DNA of 43,737 bases. Source: a virus. Lineage: Duplodnaviria; Caudoviricetes. The position numbers were made by a program, and so were the translations under genes. Positions 1 through 34,550 of this stretch are shown in pieces. Location of the stretch: positions 1 through 43,737 of IMG/VR virus record IMGVR_UViG_3300034084_000052. One strand, given 5' to 3'. A model generated the notes under the pieces. That model had not been told where the DNA came from. It ran no database searches and saw only the letters and a program-made list of their open reading frames with translations. Every line of letters starts with the position of its first letter. Positions within the stretch are counted from its first letter, which is position 1.

Positions 1-101
1 CCTCGGGCCGGCAGGGCCTACCCTCAGGGCCTACCCTCGGGCCGGCAGGGCCTACCCTCAGGCCGGCAGGGCCTACCCTCAGGGCCTACCCTCGGGCCGG
101 C
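1..101. repeat. Irregular tandem array of GGGCCTACCCTC interspersed with (G)GGCCGGCA
   Basis: Five exact GGGCCTACCCTC copies at 14-25, 27-38, 48-59, 69-80 and 82-93, plus a partial copy at 1-4. They are separated by a single A or by (G)GGCCGGC(A) (5-13, 39-47, 61-68, 94-101). The array is cut by the window edge. Confidence 0.95.
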
Positions 102-211
102 GGAGCCCGCGGGCCGGTGCTACTGAGACGCAGTCTCAGACCCCCAGACCCCCATCCGAGGCAAAGGGGTCGGGAAGATGCCGTCTTCCAGATCGCGAGC
201 CATTTTTGGAC

Positions 212-2165: not shown

Positions 2166-2792
2166 TCACCCCCTGGCCACGAGAGGGCAATTCGGGTGAT
2201 AGGGGACATCAAAAGGCATCTCGCGGGCCACCCCAACCCACTCGGCAACCTTCCCGTCCATCAGGATGGGGAGCGCACGGACCTGGAGCGAGACTCGGGT
2301 ATCGTCGGGGCGCCGAAAGGAAACCGTTTCCGCGAACTCCCGGTGCTGCTCGAGGGCCTCGGACCACCGATCGAGGATGATGTCCCGATTCTCGGGAGCC
2401 AAGGAGTTCACCCACCCGTACCCAAGGATGTCACCAGGGGTCCGCCCCGTGATCCGGTAGAAGGTGCGCGAAGCGCGAAGGTACTCCCCGGTCGCATTGC
2501 ACAGAAAGTACCCGAAGTCGGCGTCCTCGTGGAAGAGGAGCTCCCGTTCAGCGCGGGCCCGCTGCGTCTGCTCGAGGGCCACGACCTTGTCGAGCAAGGA
2601 GGAGCCCCCATTTCGGGTCAGGTGCGTCCGGACGAGGTCCGTCGATTCGGTGATCCCGGTGATCCAGACGGTGAGCCGCTTCAGGCGTCCCTGGACCCAC
2701 TGGAAGACCTTGTAGCCCACCACGGAGGCGGCGCAGACAGCGGAAAGGGCGGTCCAGAAGACCTCGGACCTCAGGAATTGGTCTGCCGGCAT
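2166..2792 (-). CDS. Membrane-anchored PAS-domain protein (TM + NGGSSLLD linker/coiled coil + PAS/PAC)
   Basis: GGAGG RBS before ATG 2792. Hydrophobic segment VFWTALSAVCAASVVGY. PAS hallmarks: GYFLCNATGEYLRASRTFYRITG, DILGYGWVNSLAPENRD, FRRPDDTRVSLQVRALPILMDGKVAEWVGVARE. Confidence 0.85.
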   Translation of the reverse strand: MPADQFLRSEVFWTALSAVCAASVVGYKVFQWVQGRLKRLTVWITGITESTDLVRTHLTRNGGSSLLDKVVALEQTQRARAERELLFHEDADFGYFLCNATGEYLRASRTFYRITGRTPGDILGYGWVNSLAPENRDIILDRWSEALEQHREFAETVSFRRPDDTRVSLQVRALPILMDGKVAEWVGVAREMPFDVPYHPNCPLVARG

Positions 2793-2814
2793 GTCCCCTC
2801 CCAGTTCAGGGAGA

Positions 2815-2957: not shown

Positions 2958-3200
2958 TCAGCCCGGATCTTCGGTGAGGAACCATTTGGTGCCTCGCTTC
3001 TCTCCGAGCCGAACGATCTTGCACTCCTTCTCGAGGTCGAAGATCGCATTCCGGCAGGCGGAATTTGAGACCTTCTTCTCTACCCCGAGCCAGTTCGAGA
3101 TGAAGGGGTACGACAAGCCGGTGCCATGCTTCACGAGCAGCTTCAGGATGAGGGCCTTGGCCCGAGCGATGTCCTTGGGTGTCGCGATCAGGATAGCCAT
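2958..3200 (-). CDS. Small winged-helix DNA-binding protein
   Basis: AGGAGG RBS. Basic 80 aa protein: ILKLLVKHGTGLSYPFISNWLG...CRNAIFDLEKECKIVRLGEKRGTKWFL (helix-turn-helix plus wing pattern). Confidence 0.7.
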   Translation of the reverse strand: MAILIATPKDIARAKALILKLLVKHGTGLSYPFISNWLGVEKKVSNSACRNAIFDLEKECKIVRLGEKRGTKWFLTEDPG

Positions 3201-3267: not shown

Positions 3268-4794
3268 ATGGACGAAACCCAGCAAGACATCCTCCGGGTC
3301 CGGGAGCGGATGCGGGACGATTTCGACTTCTACGCCGCGAACTGTCTCCGGATTCGGACCAAGGACGGTCAGATGGAGGAGGACCCTGGGACGGGCATCC
3401 GGACGCTCCCCGTGATGCGGATGAATCGGGCCCAGCGCCGCATCCACCAGCTCGCGGAACAGCAGCGGGCACGCACCGGGAGGGTCCGGGCGATCGTCGT
3501 GAAGGGCCGCCAGCAGGGCGGCTCGACCTACGTCCAGGCTCGCTTCTTCTGGCGCCTGACGCACCTCCCGAACAGGCGCGGCTTCATCCTGGCCCACAAG
3601 GATGACTCGACCCAGAACCTCTTCAATATGGCCAAGACGTTCTACGACTTCTGCCCAACACCGGTGCGACCGCACCGGGACAAGTCGAACGCCAAGGAGA
3701 TGGTCTTCGGGAAGCTCCGGACCTCCTACAAGGTCGAGACCGCGGGCGGCTCGGGGGCGGGTCGTTCCGAAACGATTCAGTTCCTGCACATGAGCGAGTG
3801 CGCCTACTTCCCGAACGCCGAGGACACCATCGTGGGCGTCACGCAGGGTGTCCCGAACGCGGACGACACCGAGATCTGGATGGAGTCCACCTCCGCCGGC
3901 CCTATCGGGCTCTTCTACGAGATGGCGATGGCGGCGGAGAGCGGGGAGTCCGAGTACATCGTTATTTTCACACCCTGGTACTTCTCGGACGAGTATGCAG
4001 CCTATCCCGTCCCAGATAACTTTGTTAGAACGCCCGAGGAGGAGGACGTCGCGACCCTGGCCCTGGAGCAGGACGGCGAGATCCTGAATGACGCCCAGTT
4101 GTGGTGGAGGCGCAACAAGATCATCGAGACCCGCGGAGTCCACCGCTTCCGCCGGGAGTTCCCGGCGACCCTGAAGGAGGCCTTTCAGGCGGACGCGATG
4201 GGGGCGCTGTGGAAGACGCCCCACATCTCGGAGCATCGGGTCATGCGGATCCCGGACTCGGATCTCCCGGTCGAGGACCGCCGCTTCGGTTTCACCCGAG
4301 TGGCTGTGTCGGTTGACCCGAGCGGCGGCAAGAAGGCCCGTAATGATGAGCAGGGGATCACGGTCGGAGGACTCGGCTCGGATGGGCACGGCTACGTCCT
4401 GGCGGACCTGAGCGGCAAATACACCCCCGAGGAATGGGCCCGGAAGGCGATCAACGCCTACCACGAGTACCTCGCCGACTGCATCGTCGTGGAGCGCAAC
4501 TTCGGGGGCGACATGGTCAAGTCGATCATCATGTCGATCGACAGCACTGTGAAGGTCAAGGAGGTCGTGGCATCCAGAGGAAAAGAGGTCCGAGCGGAGC
4601 CGGTCGCGTCCCTCTACGAGAGAGGTCTGGTGCACCATGTCGGCCGGCACACCAAGCTCGAAGACGAGATGACGACCTGGGATCCGGTCAAGTCAACCTT
4701 CAGCCCGAACCGACTGGACTCGCTGGTATGGCTGATGACAGAATTGATGCTCGGAGCCAAGGACGTGGTGTATGCTCGTAGGGTGAGGATCTAA
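3268..4794 (+). CDS. terL: Terminase large subunit
   Basis: NRAQ Q-motif, Walker A VKGRQQGGST, Walker B FLHMSECAY, coupling motif MESTS. RNase H-like nuclease domain: VAVSVDPS...VVERNFGG...PNRLDSLVW. Confidence 0.95.
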   Translation: MDETQQDILRVRERMRDDFDFYAANCLRIRTKDGQMEEDPGTGIRTLPVMRMNRAQRRIHQLAEQQRARTGRVRAIVVKGRQQGGSTYVQARFFWRLTHLPNRRGFILAHKDDSTQNLFNMAKTFYDFCPTPVRPHRDKSNAKEMVFGKLRTSYKVETAGGSGAGRSETIQFLHMSECAYFPNAEDTIVGVTQGVPNADDTEIWMESTSAGPIGLFYEMAMAAESGESEYIVIFTPWYFSDEYAAYPVPDNFVRTPEEEDVATLALEQDGEILNDAQLWWRRNKIIETRGVHRFRREFPATLKEAFQADAMGALWKTPHISEHRVMRIPDSDLPVEDRRFGFTRVAVSVDPSGGKKARNDEQGITVGGLGSDGHGYVLADLSGKYTPEEWARKAINAYHEYLADCIVVERNFGGDMVKSIIMSIDSTVKVKEVVASRGKEVRAEPVASLYERGLVHHVGRHTKLEDEMTTWDPVKSTFSPNRLDSLVWLMTELMLGAKDVVYARRVRI

Positions 4795-9076: not shown

Positions 9077-9409
9077 ATGGTCCTCTCTAACCTCAATGCC
9101 GTGATCAACGACCTGGACGGCAAGCCCGTCATGAACGGCAGCTCCGCGCTCACCTTCCGCGCAGCCATGGTCGCCGCTCTCTCCTTCGAGAAGCCCGCTG
9201 AACAGGGCGGTCGCAGCGAAGTCGGCGGCGAAGATCGGTTCAAGCGCTGGAGCATCGCGAACAAGATCCAGAATGCCGCGGACACCGTGGAGCTGAAGGC
9301 CGAGGAACTGGCACTGGTCAAGGACCAGGTTGGCAAGGCTTTCCTTATGGTGGTGGTCGGTCCTGTCTGGACCCTGATTGAACAGGCCGGCTCAGGAGAA
9401 GTCCAGTGA
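9077..9409 (+). CDS. Phage protein, possible fibre assembly chaperone
   Basis: AGGAG RBS. DLDGKP...EDRFKRWSIANKI...VELKAEELALVK..VGKAF..VVVG, a pattern recalled from genes downstream of fibre genes. Confidence 0.65.
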   Translation: MVLSNLNAVINDLDGKPVMNGSSALTFRAAMVAALSFEKPAEQGGRSEVGGEDRFKRWSIANKIQNAADTVELKAEELALVKDQVGKAFLMVVVGPVWTLIEQAGSGEVQ

Positions 9410-9828
9410 ACCGCGTCACGCGAGGAATGAGAGTCCTCCTGCTTCTGCTCTGCACCACCCTCTCCGCGCAGCAGTCTTCCTGGAGGGGCACCAGCAATAG
9501 CTGGAGCCCCTTCCAGCAGGACAAGGGCCTCCATGTCTTCGCGGGCGCGATGATAGGTTCTGCGGCCTACATAACCGCGGATTGGCTGGGCTACAAGAAG
9601 CCCTGGATCCACGCCCTGTTCTGGGCCGCCCTGGCGGGGTACCTGAAGGAGCGGTACGACAGGCAGCACGGAGGACGACCGGAATACGCGGACGCCCTTT
9701 GGACCGCAGGGGGTGGCCTGGGGGTCAGCTTCCTTATCTACAAGACGAACCCCCCCGACAAGAGTGGCTACGTCAAGGGACCGAAGGCCGAGATCGTTAT
9801 TCCGGACATCGAGCTCCCCGTAGAGTAA
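9406..9828 (+). CDS. YfiM/DUF2279/VanZ-like membrane protein
   Basis: GTGA overlap with the upstream stop. Signal-peptide-like N-terminus. Motifs DKGLHVFAGA, KERYD and DALWTAGG. Confidence 0.7.
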   Translation: MNRVTRGMRVLLLLLCTTLSAQQSSWRGTSNSWSPFQQDKGLHVFAGAMIGSAAYITADWLGYKKPWIHALFWAALAGYLKERYDRQHGGRPEYADALWTAGGGLGVSFLIYKTNPPDKSGYVKGPKAEIVIPDIELPVE

Positions 9829-29500: not shown

Positions 29501-31908
29501 GGGGCTCCTCCGCGGACTCCGCCTCACCCCTCGCGAAGGTCTCCCGGAAGTTGACGTGGTCCTCGACCACGATGACCGCCCTCAGCCCGGACTTCTCGAA
29601 CTACAGCTTCACGGGGAAGGAAACTCGTGTGGTCCTGGCTCGGGTTAGGTACAACTCCGGGACCTGGGTCGGCAAGTGCCACTTCAAGGGACTGAGCCCT
29701 TCCGTGACCACCGGCACCACCGACAAGTGGGCCCAGATCACGGCCCCGCCCGTTGGTCAGTGGACCGACATCGCGTGGGACATGGCGCTCCTAGAGGATT
29801 CGAGTACCAGCTACATCGCGAACACCCGGATCGATCAGATCCTGCTGGACCTCGTCTCGAGCGCAGGAGATGTCGAGATCGACCACGTCAGCATCGGCAC
29901 CTACGGCGCGGGCTCGAAGATGGACCGCGACAACGCGCTCTACCAAGGGATCCTGGACGCCCTGGCCACGGGGAACGTCGCCCTGCTCGGCAGCACGGTG
30001 ATCTCGAACGGCGGGAACCTGATCCCGAACCCGAAGAGCGAGCTGACCTCGACCACCCTGCCCGCAGGGTCCTACGGACTCGTGAGCCTGGACAGCACCG
30101 GCATCGGCTACAACAGCTCGACCGGGTGCCGCAAGGTCCTGGCCGGCGTGACCTCCCAGATCACGGCCCGCACCGAGTGCAAACCGAACGAGGTCTACTA
30201 CGTTTCGGCCCAGGCCAAGGTCAGCGGCGCAGCGACCGCGTCCCTCCAGGTCGAGACCTTCGACAAGGACGGCGTGAGCCAGGGGAACGTGACGATGGCG
30301 GCCGGCTACGCCACGACCTCGACGAGCTACACCTTGATCTACGGCCAAGCGACCATCCCTGCGAACGCGGTGGCCTTCTGCGTGAAGCTAAACTGCACGG
30401 CCGGCACGCACGCCCTCTTCGATGACCTCGGCTGCTTGCGCTGTGCCGATGCCGCGCTCCTCGTGAACGGCTCCGTCACGGCCCTCGTCATCGCCGCCAG
30501 CGCGATCCAGACGTATCACCTTAGCGTCGGCCCGAACTACCAGTTCACGGCGACCGCGGGCGGCTCTCCGCTCCTCATGAACAACGACGGCTCCTTCAGC
30601 GCGAACACCGTCAACGGGGCCGTCGAGAACAGCGTCGATGCTGCGTCCTACATGGATGCGCTGCGCCTGTATCCGGCGGCGAGGTCCAAGACCTACGAGG
30701 CGAACTTCACGAGCGCCGGGGGGCAGGACCGAGGCTTCCTGATCAACATGAGCAGCGCCTTCGGGACCGTCACTACCGGGCTCAGGATTCTGCACAGCGG
30801 CTCCGCGATCACCGTGAAGCCGGTGACAGGCACCCGGACCTACGGCGCCACGATCACCCCCACCACCACCCCCGCATCCGTTCCCGCTGCGGGCACCGGG
30901 AAGCTGACCGCGATCTGGTCCGGGGAATCCGGCACGAGCGCCACCCGGCGCCTGATCATCAAGTGCGATGGCGTCGAGGTGCAGACCTACTCGGACGCCG
31001 CTATCGCCGCGGTGTCCGCGGGGGACGACGGACAGCAGTCCGGCTACGCCGGGATCCTCCTCGGGACCCACGCGACCCGCCCCGGGGACGTGAAGGCCTG
31101 GGGTATCGCCCTGGGGATCGGCTCGGTCACCATCCAGGATGGCACCGTGACCGCGGATTCTTTGATCGCCGACTTCGCCATCGTGAACACGATCCGTTCG
31201 AGCAACTACGTCGTTGGGAACGGTGGCGCGAGCGCAACCGGATTCAAGGTCAGCGGAACGGCCTTCAACGTGACCCTCAAAGGGCACGCCTCTCCGACCT
31301 CTCTCCAGGCCGAGTTCGGGGACGATGTCGCGATCGCTGGGTACCGAGCCCTGACCCTTGCGGATCGAGCGATGTTCGCTCACAACCGGCTGAGTAACTC
31401 AGCATTCGCCTACAGCCTCTCCCCCTGGGGAACGAACGGGACGGAGCCCCCTATCTGGTCCAGCGAGACCAAGACCTCGGGCACGGGGTCCGCGGAACAG
31501 TCGGCCTCGGGCACCGTCCTAGCGACCCCTGTCGAATCCACCGGGAGCATCATCCAGCCCTTCACGGTGCCGCCGCTGGAGGCCAGCGAGGTCGTGCTCC
31601 TGACGATGCAGACCGGAAGGTACAGCAGCTCGGGCGCGAACGCCAGCTACGACGGCTACGTCAAGGCCTACCTCCTGAACACCGCCACCGGGGTGGAGTC
31701 GTTACTCGCCACCTACACCTACACCACCTGGACCACTGCCGAAGCCCTTGCCTGGACCTCCCGATCCGAGGACATCAGCACCGAGATCGGGACGGCCGGC
31801 GGGGATTTCGTGCTCCGGATCGAGATGTACGCCTACGCAATCCGGACGGGTGGCGCAGGAACCAAGACCGCGTCCATCTACGTGGATGAGGTCTCCATTG
31901 AAATCTAG
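26584..31908 (+). CDS. Central tail fibre/tip attachment protein gpJ-like
   Basis: I.GAGGKGGGG, DVISEG.I.G, YPNTA, VPSNYDP..R.Y.G.WDGTF..AWSNNPAW and EPRFTCN. FN3-like domains and a long C-terminal extension. 1774 aa. Confidence 0.95.
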   Translation: MSEPIKGAGGKGGGGGARSPIEVPDSLRSTQVARVIDVISEGVIYGFPESGPVNPSYGDPSDPLYEGDLSSKYIYLNDTPMMNEDGSFNFSDISYNLRFGTQDQPHVGGFPGSENVITVGAELKAGSPGPYVRTISDANVDAVIVTMEFPRLTLQSAQGDLTGSYVQLLFEMQPDGEAYQEIAAGGDAKVAGKSVGSYTRSWYIPLTGSAPWNIRVTRVTADSVDVLTNNKSYVQSITEVIETKLRYPNTAYAAIRADAKQFGSIPSRSYLLKGIKIRVPSNYDPDTRVYTGLWDGTFQLAWSNNPAWIWYDLLTTDRYGLGSLIEQEMVDKFTCYEIGKYCDEMVDDGYGGTEPRFTCNLYLMTQEDAYKVLANIASVFRGMTYWSAGAFTLVADQPRDPVAIFTNANVVEPGFEYQGSYRKTRHNAIQVSWNNPQDNYKLDWVYVEDPASISQIGLRSTEISGLGCTSRRQAMFAARAVLFTERYESSVISFTTGMEGASRRPGDIIEIHDNLRGGSELGGRLAAGSTSSTLVLDRPITFSPGAEILIQLSDGFIQSQPLSTGSGTNTVTVSTAFAETPSANTTYIIRNPGVVNLYRVVSVVESKPNEYAISALKHDPDKYAYIEDGISLVDDGPNTNSSNIPTNLIVREDIRTMPTGEIHSVITADWTPVQNAANYPLQWKKDFGNWVEVPLLSTANYEIPEAAVIGSTYTVRVASVVDGRTSRYAYGSIVADGKTEAPADVTGFTAEPGLYSAELSWTANTEPDVVGYEIRYGATWGAATLVVSDYLGTTFTWQKQPADDYDLLIKAKNSSGVYSVTAAAVTLSVSPADDFITPSEKRNWKATYDIIWLEKPDLDAQALAVGVSSVAYDTSITNLDTYLGTLTGAQGWTGGATDDWTSYTDVYYLGDATPPTTGLEFVSMFQAVTVARNALIAAIIAATGDPFNPTDTFRPALMWDFGDGSDGGFTISGGSSADSASPLAKVSRKLTWSSTTMTALSPDFSNYSFTGKETRVVLARVRYNSGTWVGKCHFKGLSPSVTTGTTDKWAQITAPPVGQWTDIAWDMALLEDSSTSYIANTRIDQILLDLVSSAGDVEIDHVSIGTYGAGSKMDRDNALYQGILDALATGNVALLGSTVISNGGNLIPNPKSELTSTTLPAGSYGLVSLDSTGIGYNSSTGCRKVLAGVTSQITARTECKPNEVYYVSAQAKVSGAATASLQVETFDKDGVSQGNVTMAAGYATTSTSYTLIYGQATIPANAVAFCVKLNCTAGTHALFDDLGCLRCADAALLVNGSVTALVIAASAIQTYHLSVGPNYQFTATAGGSPLLMNNDGSFSANTVNGAVENSVDAASYMDALRLYPAARSKTYEANFTSAGGQDRGFLINMSSAFGTVTTGLRILHSGSAITVKPVTGTRTYGATITPTTTPASVPAAGTGKLTAIWSGESGTSATRRLIIKCDGVEVQTYSDAAIAAVSAGDDGQQSGYAGILLGTHATRPGDVKAWGIALGIGSVTIQDGTVTADSLIADFAIVNTIRSSNYVVGNGGASATGFKVSGTAFNVTLKGHASPTSLQAEFGDDVAIAGYRALTLADRAMFAHNRLSNSAFAYSLSPWGTNGTEPPIWSSETKTSGTGSAEQSASGTVLATPVESTGSIIQPFTVPPLEASEVVLLTMQTGRYSSSGANASYDGYVKAYLLNTATGVESLLATYTYTTWTTAEALAWTSRSEDISTEIGTAGGDFVLRIEMYAYAIRTGGAGTKTASIYVDEVSIEI

Positions 31909-31921
31909 CCCAGAGAGCACC

Positions 31922-32713
31922 GTGTCCAATCCATCCCCCCTTCGCTCCGCCCTGCTCGTCCTGCTCTCGGTCCTAGGAACTTGGGCCTGGATGGCCCGCC
32001 AGCAGGCGAAACAGGTCGCGGCCCTCCAAGATACCCTCCGGGCCGAGTTCAAGCTCCTAGGCCCCTCAGCGCAAGCCCAGGGGCACCTCCTGGACTACAC
32101 CGAGCTGGCCAAGAAGGTGAAGGAGACGATGGGCCCCGAGCTGGCGGCCGAGATCCGGAAGCAGGGGGGTCGGGTGGTCGCCTCGGTTCAGGGCACGGCC
32201 CTCGTCCCGGGGTCAGAGGTCTCGCAGCATTCGGACCCCCCTGACCTCCCGAATGGGGGCTTCGACACCACCGTCGTGCAGGGCCGCCCTTCGGGTCTCC
32301 CTCCCTTGACCGAAGCTCGGTTGCGGTACGTCCCAAACCTCGGACTGACGACAAATTGGATCAACTACTCGGAACAATACAAGCTCAACTTCGCGACGTG
32401 GCGCACCGACAAGGACGGGATGCGGGCCGGAGCATCCCTCTCCCGGGAGGTCTTCGACCCCGAAGGGAAGTCCCTGGGCACGGAGCAGATCCCCCTGACC
32501 GGGGCCGAGGCCTTCTTCCCGGGGTCCGAGGTTCGGAGGGTTGAGTCCTTCCCGAAGTATGGGATTGGTCTAGGTATTGGACGTGACGAACTCGGCAGAA
32601 CGAGGCCCAACCTCATCTTCGAGAAGCACCTGACCCGAAATTGGTCGATAATGACTGGGTACGTAAACGGCAGCAGCCTGATCCTAGGCAAATACACTTG
32701 GGGGCGAAATTGA
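31922..32713 (+). CDS. Membrane-anchored protein with beta-strand C-terminus (spanin-like candidate)
   Basis: GTG 31922. N-terminal TM ALLVLLSVLGTWAWM, then a coiled segment. C-terminal amphipathic strands KYGIGLGIG, NWSIMTGYV and LILGKYTW. Confidence 0.65.
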   Translation: MSNPSPLRSALLVLLSVLGTWAWMARQQAKQVAALQDTLRAEFKLLGPSAQAQGHLLDYTELAKKVKETMGPELAAEIRKQGGRVVASVQGTALVPGSEVSQHSDPPDLPNGGFDTTVVQGRPSGLPPLTEARLRYVPNLGLTTNWINYSEQYKLNFATWRTDKDGMRAGASLSREVFDPEGKSLGTEQIPLTGAEAFFPGSEVRRVESFPKYGIGLGIGRDELGRTRPNLIFEKHLTRNWSIMTGYVNGSSLILGKYTWGRN

Positions 32714-33165
32714 GCACTCTGACGATCACGATGGACAAAGGGGCCTTCCTGACGGAAGTCCAGAAATACGTTAATCTCTCGCCCGTCTTCGCGGAGTGGA
32801 AGGACGTCCAGTCCCTGGACTGGCCCAGTGCCCTCGTCCCGCCCAAGCTCTGGAAGACCCTTCCCGAGATCATCCAGTTCATCGGCGCCGTCTGCGCCGC
32901 AGTCGAGCTGGCCAAGATCGAGGTCATCAAGAAGGAGGACCCCGACGGCACGAAGGGCGCCAAGTTCGACCGGGAGTTGGCCCTCCGCACCGCGGTCACG
33001 ATCTTCGCCGCGGGTGTCCGGTTTGGGGGCGTCTGGGGATGGCTCCCGGGGCGCATCTGGTTCCCGATCATGAACCTCCTGATCTCGATCTATGTTTCCC
33101 AGCGTCCCGCCGACTGGGCCGCGCTTGCGGTCAAGATCCTCCGCATCGCGCTGGTGACGGTGTGA
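32710..33165 (+). CDS. Hypothetical lysis-cassette protein (amphipathic/hydrophobic)
   Basis: TTGA overlap start (alternative ATG 32731). The stop overlaps the endolysin start. Confidence 0.65.
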   Translation: MSTLTITMDKGAFLTEVQKYVNLSPVFAEWKDVQSLDWPSALVPPKLWKTLPEIIQFIGAVCAAVELAKIEVIKKEDPDGTKGAKFDRELALRTAVTIFAAGVRFGGVWGWLPGRIWFPIMNLLISIYVSQRPADWAALAVKILRIALVTV

Positions 33166-33692
33166 CGTCGCGACTGGACAGGGCTCTGGACTTCACCCTC
33201 GAGCACGAGGGCGGATGGTCGGACAGGAAGAACGACAAGGGGGGCAAGACGAACTGGGGGATCACCCTGGCGGTCCTGAAGGGCCTCGGCCGGGATGTGG
33301 ACCTGGATGGGGATGTGGATGCGGACGACCTCCGGGCCTTGCCGAAGGAGGAGGCTCGAGCCATCTACGAGAACCTGTACTGGTTCGGGGACCCTTTCCT
33401 GGACGACGCCGTCGCGATCAAGCACTTCGACATCGGCGTGCACGCCGGCCCCGGCACCGCGAACAAGATCCTTCAGCGGGCCATCAACAACTTCTGGGGG
33501 AGGCCCCTCCTCGCCGAGGACGGTCATCTGGGTCCGAAGACCCTGGCCGCGGCCAATGCGCTCCCCCCGAAGGACATGCTCCAGGCCCTTTGTGCGGAGC
33601 AACTCGGCCACTACCTCAACATCATCCGGCTGGACCCCACCCAGATCGAGTTCCAGAACGGCTGGATCAAGCGGGCCAAGCGGAAGCCCTGA
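33162..33692 (+). CDS. Endolysin, glycoside hydrolase family 108 with C-terminal peptidoglycan-binding region
   Basis: TLEHEGGWSD...DKGGKTNWGIT, EF-hand-like DVDLDGDVDADD, IY...YW, DGHLGPKTL and F..GW..R. Confidence 0.92.
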   Translation: MTSRLDRALDFTLEHEGGWSDRKNDKGGKTNWGITLAVLKGLGRDVDLDGDVDADDLRALPKEEARAIYENLYWFGDPFLDDAVAIKHFDIGVHAGPGTANKILQRAINNFWGRPLLAEDGHLGPKTLAAANALPPKDMLQALCAEQLGHYLNIIRLDPTQIEFQNGWIKRAKRKP

Positions 33693-33722
33693 GGAGGGTA
33701 CACTACCTCAGGGGGGATCGAG

Positions 33723-33929
33723 ATGTTGACCGGACACGGCAAGATCTATTGCCCGGCGTGCCTCAGGCTCCTGACCTGCCACCTGTGCGATCATATGGGG
33801 GACCGAGGAGACCACTCGGCCCTCTATGTCCACGACGAGGTGCCGCATGACGGGGAAACTATGGCTTGCCTGGATCGGATCCGTCCTGCTTGGGTTCCTC
33901 GTAGGGTATCTGGTATCAGTGAAGTATGA
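33723..33929 (+). CDS. Possible Cys/His-rich small protein
   Basis: G-rich RBS, CPAC and CHLC motifs. Overlaps the holin candidate by 83 nt. Confidence 0.4.
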   Translation: MLTGHGKIYCPACLRLLTCHLCDHMGDRGDHSALYVHDEVPHDGETMACLDRIRPAWVPRRVSGISEV

Positions 33930-34191
33930 AAAACTCGGCTTCACCCTTTTCGGGGACAACGGCGTCTTTCGGGGCAAGCGGAACGAGGGCTCCTACACCC
34001 GGGTGATTCCGTTTCTGCTCATCGTGGTCGCGGTCCTGATCTGGGTCGCCGGGGTCTACGTCCCAGACATCGCGGCCTACGCCACCTCCATGATCGACAA
34101 GATCATCGAGCTCGCGAAGTGGACCTTCGGCCTCGGTAAGGGGTCCGAGGAAATCAGTGGCATTGGAAAGCCGGCCAAGGCCGAGGAATGA
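33847..34191 (+). CDS. Holin candidate (two TM segments)
   Basis: GAGGT RBS. TM segments LWLAWIGSVLLGFLVGYLVSV and VIPFLLIVVAVLIWVAGVYV. Downstream of the endolysin. Confidence 0.65.
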   Translation: MTGKLWLAWIGSVLLGFLVGYLVSVKYEKLGFTLFGDNGVFRGKRNEGSYTRVIPFLLIVVAVLIWVAGVYVPDIAAYATSMIDKIIELAKWTFGLGKGSEEISGIGKPAKAEE

Positions 34192-34550
34192 AACCCCTCC
34201 GGGTCGTTTCTCTGGGGGTGGCCCTCGGACTGTTCCTTTCGACCTGCTGGGGGAATGTCCAGGACGCTCGAGGGGAGCGGGACCTCTGGGAGGAGCGGGC
34301 CCAACTGTCCGAGTTTCTCGAGGAACGGTCCAGACAAAAGGTTGCGACCCTCACCCGGAGGTGTGGGTCGCATCAACGGACAATAGCTGTCCAACGGCAC
34401 AACATCGAGGTCTTGCTCGGACTGGCCGCCGCCCTCCGGGATCTCCGAAGGGGGGAAGTTCCGAAGCCGAAGGAGCCGGAGGAGGTTCCTCGGTTCGAGT
34501 ATCCTCGCTTTTCGATCGTCAGCGGTTCAGCGCCAACTGAGCACCCATGA
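34188..34550 (+). CDS. Spanin-like protein (signal/TM + coiled coil, near-lipobox LSTC)
   Basis: ATGA overlap. MKPLRVVSLGVALGLFLSTC followed by a charged helical region. Last gene of the lysis cassette. Confidence 0.55.
   Translation: MKPLRVVSLGVALGLFLSTCWGNVQDARGERDLWEERAQLSEFLEERSRQKVATLTRRCGSHQRTIAVQRHNIEVLLGLAAALRDLRRGEVPKPKEPEEVPRFEYPRFSIVSGSAPTEHP

Follow-up and report, generated by a model that had tools for sequence, protein, structure and literature searches.

Introduction

The time of lysis sets the burst size and the fitness of a phage, and it is usually regarded as a clock inherent in the holin, lysis inhibition in T4 being the textbook exception. In that system, made up of the holin T and the antiholins RI and RIII, a lysis protein with one transmembrane (TM) segment carries a globular domain, and a signal sets the time of lysis through this domain; the domain of T is periplasmic and GAF-like, and is read through RI on superinfection. 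Another signal-related phage protein is VqmA of vibriophage VP882, a soluble PAS-HTH transcription factor that serves a lysis-lysogeny switch. In the mycobacteriophages Girr and NBJ, LysF1b is a holin-like protein with one TM segment in the N-out/C-in orientation that matches DUF2746, and its loss leads to severe lysis defects (PMC13056207). A preprint gives the same role to gp30 (LysA2b) of D29, encoded at a distance from the lysins, and shows that it activates a protein with two TM segments (bioRxiv 10.64898/2026.08.27.747656).

Here we analyse P0001, a protein of 208 aa encoded in what we call the window, the whole 43.7-kb stretch of DNA studied, which comes from a tailed phage with 63% GC. 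P0001 belongs to a phage family of TM-NGGSS-PAS proteins for which we gathered 174 sequences (partly redundant) and 44 clusters with viral context. In the literature searched, to which subscription journals mostly did not belong, there is no description of a phage TM-PAS lysis protein or of the NGGSS motif, and what is new here is the definition of the family, a controlled link between it and DUF2746/LysF1b, an argument from the register of its parts and a count of its neighbourhoods. We hypothesize that P0001 is a lysis-timing regulator in which a cytoplasmic PAS domain gates a hinge and is tuned to a cue from the host cytoplasm, a reading that we find quite possible and put forward tentatively.

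The gene and the phage

The window holds genes for terminase, portal, capsid, tail tube, tape measure, a lambda-like tail tip, DNA polymerase A and a helicase. An identical protein is also recorded on a contig of 61.7 kb, so that the window is probably partial, and all seven of the runs listed are sediment metagenomes, of which three could be where this DNA came from. The P0001 gene lies on the minus strand at 2166..2792, and directly 5' of its ATG at 2792 stands the Shine-Dalgarno-like sequence GGGAGGGG (2795..2802, minus strand). An ORF on the plus strand overlaps it, but the GC content by codon position is 0.65/0.46/0.84 in the P0001 gene, resembling the terminase, lysin and polymerase genes of the window, against 0.75/0.48/0.66 in the overlapping ORF, and because of this pattern we take the minus frame to be the real gene. 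Contigs from other sediment runs span the gene and bridge its two ends, so its placement is not an assembly artefact.

Upstream and in the same orientation lies an ORF of 80 aa (2958..3200, minus strand) with a strong ribosome-binding site, which looks winged-helix-like by eye, has no match among the Pfam and PHROG profiles and is probably co-transcribed with the P0001 gene. It sits between that gene and the one for the terminase large subunit (3268..4794, plus strand; a profile match), which diverges from this unit, and a small terminase could not be recognised where one usually lies. Around the P0001 gene we found no sigma-70 promoter, and the sole terminator-like match there is at chance level.

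The P0001 gene is thus near the terminase instead of in the lysis cassette of the window, and about 30 kb separate it from the endolysin, which is on the opposite strand (GH108 and PG_binding_3; 33162..33692, plus strand). In the same distant region a protein with two TM segments (33826..34191, plus strand) is a candidate partner of P0001; in L164, a contig from a related phage, its homologue (33%, E 2e-10) is found three genes past the PAS gene. A search for close relatives of this 2-TM protein came back empty. L164 shares with the window a polA at 42% and a homologue of the ORF at 9406 at 51%, and it sits in a Holophagaceae bin, a hint of an acidobacterial host for the window phage, with the caveat that bins can misplace phage contigs. 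We take the type of lysin to point to a Gram-negative host.

Some features of the window deserve mention in their own right. The make-up of its lysis region (31748-34550, plus strand) is unusual: the GH108 lysin is the sole firm family match, accompanied by a protein with a signal anchor whose C-terminus is beta-rich, a membrane protein of 143 aa, a Cys/His-rich ORF of 68 aa, the 2-TM protein, for which DUF2644-like clusters are a lead only, and a TM-coiled-coil protein. The ORF at 31748-32713 was considered as a relative of the L164 ORF at 4024-4626 and rejected, as there is no detectable relationship. The ORFs at 9406-9828 of the window and 6990-7373 of L164 belong to one family of membrane proteins with signal peptides (51% identity, at differing positions), which has a weak match to DUF3943. 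At the start of the window (1-110) there is a GC-rich tandem repeat of 21 bp, with 2.9 copies at 25-86 and additional incomplete copies right where the contig begins, ahead of the ORF at 247-861.

Architecture and predicted topology

P0001 is matched above the curated Pfam cut-offs by PAS_3 (residues 105-189, E 8e-10, 39.3 bits against a cut-off of 25.6) and also by PAS_9, PAS_4 and PAS, and Pfam finds no output domain in it. The AlphaFold2 model, built on an alignment of 46 sequences, has a mean pLDDT of 93, with 97-98 in the PAS domain, and consists of a helix (10-58), a loop at NGGSS (59-65), a second helix (66-89) and the PAS strands (94-191). Foldseek places this model with the PAS domains of LOV proteins and NifL (E 1e-8, rmsd about 2 Å). 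The preliminary description had read from the sequence the motif NGGSSLLDKV, here residues 61-70, and a complete PAS domain without an output domain, and had expected PAS_3 and PAS_4 in the C-terminal part; all of this was borne out, as was the PAS fold whose absence would have refuted it. It had also seen one N-terminal TM helix, which holds in so far as a single helix is predicted, at residues 11-29 (2706..2762, minus strand) within the helix 10-58, but this is a weak TM segment, its best Kyte-Doolittle window reaching 1.5. The median of the family is 1.77 and 1.5 is reached by 129 of 170 members, so that a weak TM segment is typical of the family.

The net charge around the TM segment is -1 before and +3 after it, and 162 of the 170 members likewise carry more positive net charge behind it than ahead of it. 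On hydropathy and charge, this bias predicts an N-out/C-in topology in which the hinge, the helix and the PAS domain would all be cytoplasmic. The hinge with its helix cap, NGGSSLLD (residues 61-68; 2589..2612, minus strand), is a loop and helix start in the model, with N61, G63 and D68 in 100% and S65 in 97% of the 174 sequences. It leads into a linker helix of 24 residues (66-89; 2526..2597, minus strand), modelled by AlphaFold2 and of fixed length from the hinge to the PAS domain (residues 94-191; 2220..2513, minus strand).

T4 T is comparable in that one TM segment carries a globular domain, which is periplasmic and GAF-like in T and a predicted cytoplasmic PAS domain in P0001; a T-like holin, that of Proteus phage phiP4-3, appeared weakly (E 0.04) in the fold search with P0001. 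With VqmA it shares that both are phage PAS proteins, although VqmA binds DNA and P0001 is membrane-anchored and has no DNA-binding domain.

Extent of the family

Among the best 150 phmmer matches, 47 proteins of at most 260 aa match into the N-terminal region, nearly all with an NGG.S-like motif, and the remaining ones are long PAS proteins covered in the PAS domain only. A profile search gave 106 proteins, PAS-less TM-NGGSS proteins among them, and the ESM Atlas neighbours of P0001 form six clusters of 187-229 aa (score 0.97-0.99). With a DNA pattern of fixed spacing we found 81 loci in IMG/VR, 70 of which hold a member and fall into 44 clusters at 60% identity, and 39 loci in genomes, 9 with a member; the remaining matches, 11 of the 81 viral and 30 of the 39 genomic ones, were left out as non-members, and alignment A2 excludes two N-truncated matches, P0097 and P0106. 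No close relatives turned up in IMG/VR with P0001 and A1 as queries, P0002, the sole 50% relative of P0001, was not found in the metagenome contigs searched for it, and no full-length member came out of tblastn searches of cultured phages with P0001 and P0059. Uncultured phages do have database entries under the name 'PAS domain'.

A phage-associated TM-NGGSS-PAS family therefore exists, and the case that the preliminary description had set against its own reading, fragments of host kinases without such a family, is excluded at the sequence level. P0001 could still be thought of as a piece of a host histidine kinase that the phage captured, or as a gene in decay without phage function, as its best phmmer matches are long bacterial multi-PAS proteins. 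These matches however cover the PAS domain only, whereas the family is full-length at about 200 aa, its ESM Atlas neighbours are 99-100% viral, the codon use of the gene is native to the phage and, as weak evidence, no longer fusion was found; the family largely refutes this explanation, which we regard as highly improbable.

The PAS domain and the probable direction of a signal

Two Trp, one Arg and several Gly are retained among members that are about 25-30% identical, with W127 in 99%, W143 in 95% and R151 in 83% of the 174 sequences. The motif of LOV photoreceptors, GxNCRFLQ with its flavin-bonding Cys, is absent, and P0001 reads GYGWVNSL in its place. LOV photoreceptors are described with a flavin-bonding Cys, heme-binding PAS domains with an invariant His ligand, and FAD-binding ones of the NifL/MmoS/Aer type with an F-helix Trp and at least a His or an Asn, the Trp being the main determinant and true clusters keeping at least two of the three residues (PMC10468136). 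The main text of that source does not contain the word 'virus' and has 'phage' in one reference only (PMC10468136). No column of the 174 sequences has at least 25% His, as a heme-type ligand would give. W143 aligns to the F-helix Trp of 3ewk, which we take to be MmoS, and the His and Asn of 3ewk face E and F in the family consensus, which leaves the family with one of the three FAD residues. Redox sensing by the PAS domain is therefore possible but not supported by these residues, and our leading guesses for the cue are a hydrophobic ligand of small size, or a flavin that the conserved F-helix Trp would hold.

The incomplete signatures also suit another explanation, that P0001 is a LysF1b-like regulator with a ligand-free PAS domain, which would be a dimerisation cap or a protein-binding surface and would give the trigger a fixed threshold. 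The lack of the LOV Cys motif and of a conserved His, the single FAD residue out of three and the fact that PAS-less versions are common all agree with it, and the whole of the evidence from lysis context that is given below fits it equally well. The conservation of Trp, Trp, Arg and Gly together with the fixed linker is rather what one would expect of a signalling unit, and we consider a ligand-free domain unlikely.

If the PAS domain does signal, as in our preferred reading of a gated lysis regulator, the direction can be argued from its position. The DIT output motif occurs in 0 of the 174 family members, as compared with 243 of the 374 PAS domains that the long bacterial matches contain, the tail beyond the last PAS strand has a median of 10 aa (174 sequences), and no longer fused forms of the family were found, the latter being weak evidence. 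Since nothing follows the PAS domain, a signal can only travel back towards the hinge. The spacing from the hinge to GxxW is 63 residues in 138 of the 174 sequences (partly redundant), and the distance from the TM segment to the hinge varies (SD 11). The DNA pattern of fixed spacing itself selects for 63 residues, and the claim therefore rests also on the protein matches that were not so selected, where the spacing is exactly 63 in 69 of 81 with the motif pair detected. From this we infer that the PAS domain is kept in register with the hinge and not with the membrane, and that it would signal towards the N-terminus.

Probable remote relationship to LysF1b, and the PAS-less proteins

That NGGSS is a signature of DUF2746, as the preliminary description had it, did not hold. 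The aligned DUF2746 proteins, D29 gp30 and eight relatives, read V-x-N-x-H-x-x-N-[LM]-R-D, and because the motifs differ the statement was inexact. The DUF2746 match foreseen for the N-terminal part did not appear either: the Pfam model (PF10874) gives no match to residues 1-84 or 1-100 of P0001, nor to 8 PAS-bearing members, while the positive control, D29 gp30, scores 26.4 bits and the best NGGSS protein, a PAS-less one, stays below the cut-off of 23 with 16.9 bits (E 0.009).

What remains is a remote link between profiles. In pairwise HHalign comparisons, with E-values that are likewise pairwise, the DUF2746/LysA2b-type proteins align with the PAS family at 83.5% over 34 columns and with the PAS-less proteins at 94% over 72 columns, in register over the motif Q-[VL]-...-L-R-D. 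The scores are 36.7-44.7, as against at most 27.2 for 80 column shuffles and no more than 20.4 for 55 other clusters of small membrane proteins, many of which are single sequences and hence weak controls, and from which the top 'control', L104, was excluded as a family member. Judged from these alignments, the scaffold is probably a remote homologue of DUF2746/LysF1b and not a member of that family. The supplement of the LysF1b report lists 20 LysF1b-like phams, and NGGSS-type proteins may be among them (PMC13056207).

The PAS-less TM-NGGSS proteins are closer, matching the N-terminus of the family at 99% in HHalign. They also match PHROG 9869, as do 5 of 7 PAS-bearing members tested, whereas P0001 has no PHROG match, 9869 included. 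At 30 of 34 PAS-less loci, which are redundant and were found by motif, a CHAP or peptidase-like gene lies within two genes (10 with CHAP adjoining, 18 with a peptidase-like gene, one of these being VanY at E 0.009, and 2 with a weak CHAP within two genes), and at the other four none was called; rows at offset 0 were ignored in this count, as the label VanY_L019 there marked the NGGSS protein itself. The PAS-less gp40 of Thermobifida phage P1312 overlaps an amidase gene. Such small phage proteins (PHROG 9869-like, P1312 gp40) share with P0001 the scaffold of TM segment, hinge and helix, and differ in that they have no PAS domain and stand beside a lysin far more regularly. The earlier idea of a scaffold of lysis regions is thus right for the PAS-less relatives, which are mostly beside lysins, but not for the window gene, 30 kb away.

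The likeness to LysF1b/LysA2b lies in the single N-terminal TM segment with a predicted N-out/C-in orientation, the helical tail in the cytoplasm, the remote match in register at the L-R-D helix start and the 2-TM protein near the lysin. The D29 gene also stands outside the lysis cassette (bioRxiv 10.64898/2026.08.27.747656). The differences are that LysF1b/LysA2b has an N-x-H-x-x-N motif and a charged C-terminal tail where P0001, which the Pfam model does not match, has NGGSS and a PAS domain. LysF1b function has been shown in Gram-positive hosts only, and the host of P0001 is probably Gram-negative; the link would extend this newly described class beyond the Actinobacteria.

Gene neighbourhoods

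The neighbourhoods of homologues, which had been proposed as a check, speak in part for a lysis role. Neighbouring genes came from a rough gene caller that missed some, and holin or spanin look-alikes seen by eye (L039, L049, L061, L063, L067, L081, L104, L107) were left out. With a baseline that assumes 50-100 genes per genome, a muralytic enzyme called by HMM is the direct neighbour of the PAS gene in 5 of the 44 viral clusters, where 0.9-1.8 were expected (p 0.002-0.03), but lies within three genes in only 7 of 44, which is not clearly above the assumed baseline (p 0.015-0.27). These neighbours are of four types, lysozyme, M15, CHAP and SLT. Three further clusters of the 44 have a spanin match only and no lysin, and a lysin lies within three genes at 3 of 9 loci in genome bins, two of these being weak matches. 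Most family members are not beside a recognisable lysin.

In a tree of 62 of the 174 sequences, made by a quick search and with long branches, P0001 and P0002 group with L164, L066 and L154, the support of the clade staying under 95 (SH-aLRT 93). In each of these three, the only members of the clade with context, the PAS gene stands directly ahead of an endolysin, and in L164 it overlaps the start of a GH19 lysin by 8 nt. As L164 holds the PAS gene, the lysin and the homologue of the 2-TM protein together, a single cassette there unites what the window keeps at a distance of 30 kb; this layout is seen in the one related phage where it is visible. Over the whole tree, members with lysis context do not group together more than in shuffles, of which 159 out of 500 were as low. 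A relative by its terminase, L165 (53%; record 80% complete), has no family member, and the PAS gene may therefore be optional.

Terminase or portal genes are found within five genes of the PAS gene in 16 of the 44 clusters, six of which are one clade, and in many others no lysis gene stands close by. This raises the possibility that P0001 has no role in lysis and is an accessory or late membrane protein that acts on host signalling, such as a decoy that pairs with host sensor kinases by way of its PAS domain and helix, or that tethers packaging or assembly to the membrane. The divergence of the P0001 unit from the terminase in the window, the resemblance of the PAS domain to those of bacterial kinases and the receiver-like gene directly after the PAS gene in L133 point the same way, and other members are near genes for helicase, PhoH, HAD, Dps or GroEL. 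The scaffold is however shared with small proteins adjacent to lysins and with DUF2746, the nearest relatives overlap or abut endolysins, and none of 107 long PAS proteins from bacteria contains the NGGSS motif. Moreover, lysis genes commonly adjoin packaging genes, as they do in L070, which weakens the argument from the terminase. We therefore find a role outside lysis rather doubtful. In L109 (972-5607) a member stands between a tail fibre gene and T7-type genes for the small and large terminase, a slot that we take to be the position of the holin in T7.

In the six members of one clade (L053, L060, L076, L087, L091 and L097) the PAS gene follows a PHROG 3497 gene and lies between terminase and portal, and there is outer-membrane cargo nearby, with collagen/YadA-anchor or PagL-like genes. 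In the Acidobacteria bin L133 (5731-7366) a stand-alone receiver-like gene (E 1.6e-4) comes directly after the PAS gene and an SLT/lysozyme-like gene comes next, possibly a small relay inside a lysis cassette; the receiver-like gene has no homologue in the other family loci.

Proposed role

The reading of P0001 as a lysis regulator draws on the scaffold match, the topology, the function of the relatives, the adjacency to muralytic genes, the context of the clade, the register and the absence of DIT. Against lysis timing stand the separation of 30 kb, the few lysin neighbours, the terminase context and the lack of a complete cofactor signature, and furthermore the shortness of the DUF2746 match (34 columns), the lack of a Pfam match to DUF2746 or of any PHROG match, and L165 without a member.

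P0001 would accumulate late in infection in the inner membrane as a helical oligomer and, like LysF1b/LysA2b, either trigger lysis itself or activate a 2-TM partner, for which the ORF at 33826-34191 is the candidate. A signal from the PAS domain would run up the helix 66-89 to the invariant NGGSS hinge and shift the oligomer, or its contact with the partner, and thereby the time of lysis. In this lineage the gene would have moved out of the lysis cassette, and would work in trans as lysA2b of D29 does. It is possible, though we hold this wider claim with less confidence, that the same applies to a widespread family of tailed phages, in which a cytoplasmic PAS domain on a LysF1b-type trigger reads a metabolite or the redox state at the membrane without transcription and shifts lysis through a backward signal from PAS to NGGSS, from any position in the genome. 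A sensor fused to a scaffold related to lysis triggers would, if true, time lysis directly to the physiology of the host. As lysF1b complements D29 without lysA2b, chimeras and PAS deletions could be scored in a laboratory host.

A protein of cultured Cellulophaga phages recalls this architecture. The 240-aa gp108 of phi19:1 was tried as a member and rejected, as it lacks NGGSS and its sequence does not match the family. Where its tail module ends, phi19:1 has three small membrane genes and this protein with a TM segment, a helix and a globular part (gp105-gp108, L178:45167-46925), and a lysozyme follows five genes on. A phi19:1 protein that is tied to gp108 by its length only, through a BFVD match, matches the P0001 model by fold (E 2e-6), and may show the same architecture built on a different scaffold; for phi18:3 there is a fold match similar to that of phi19:1.
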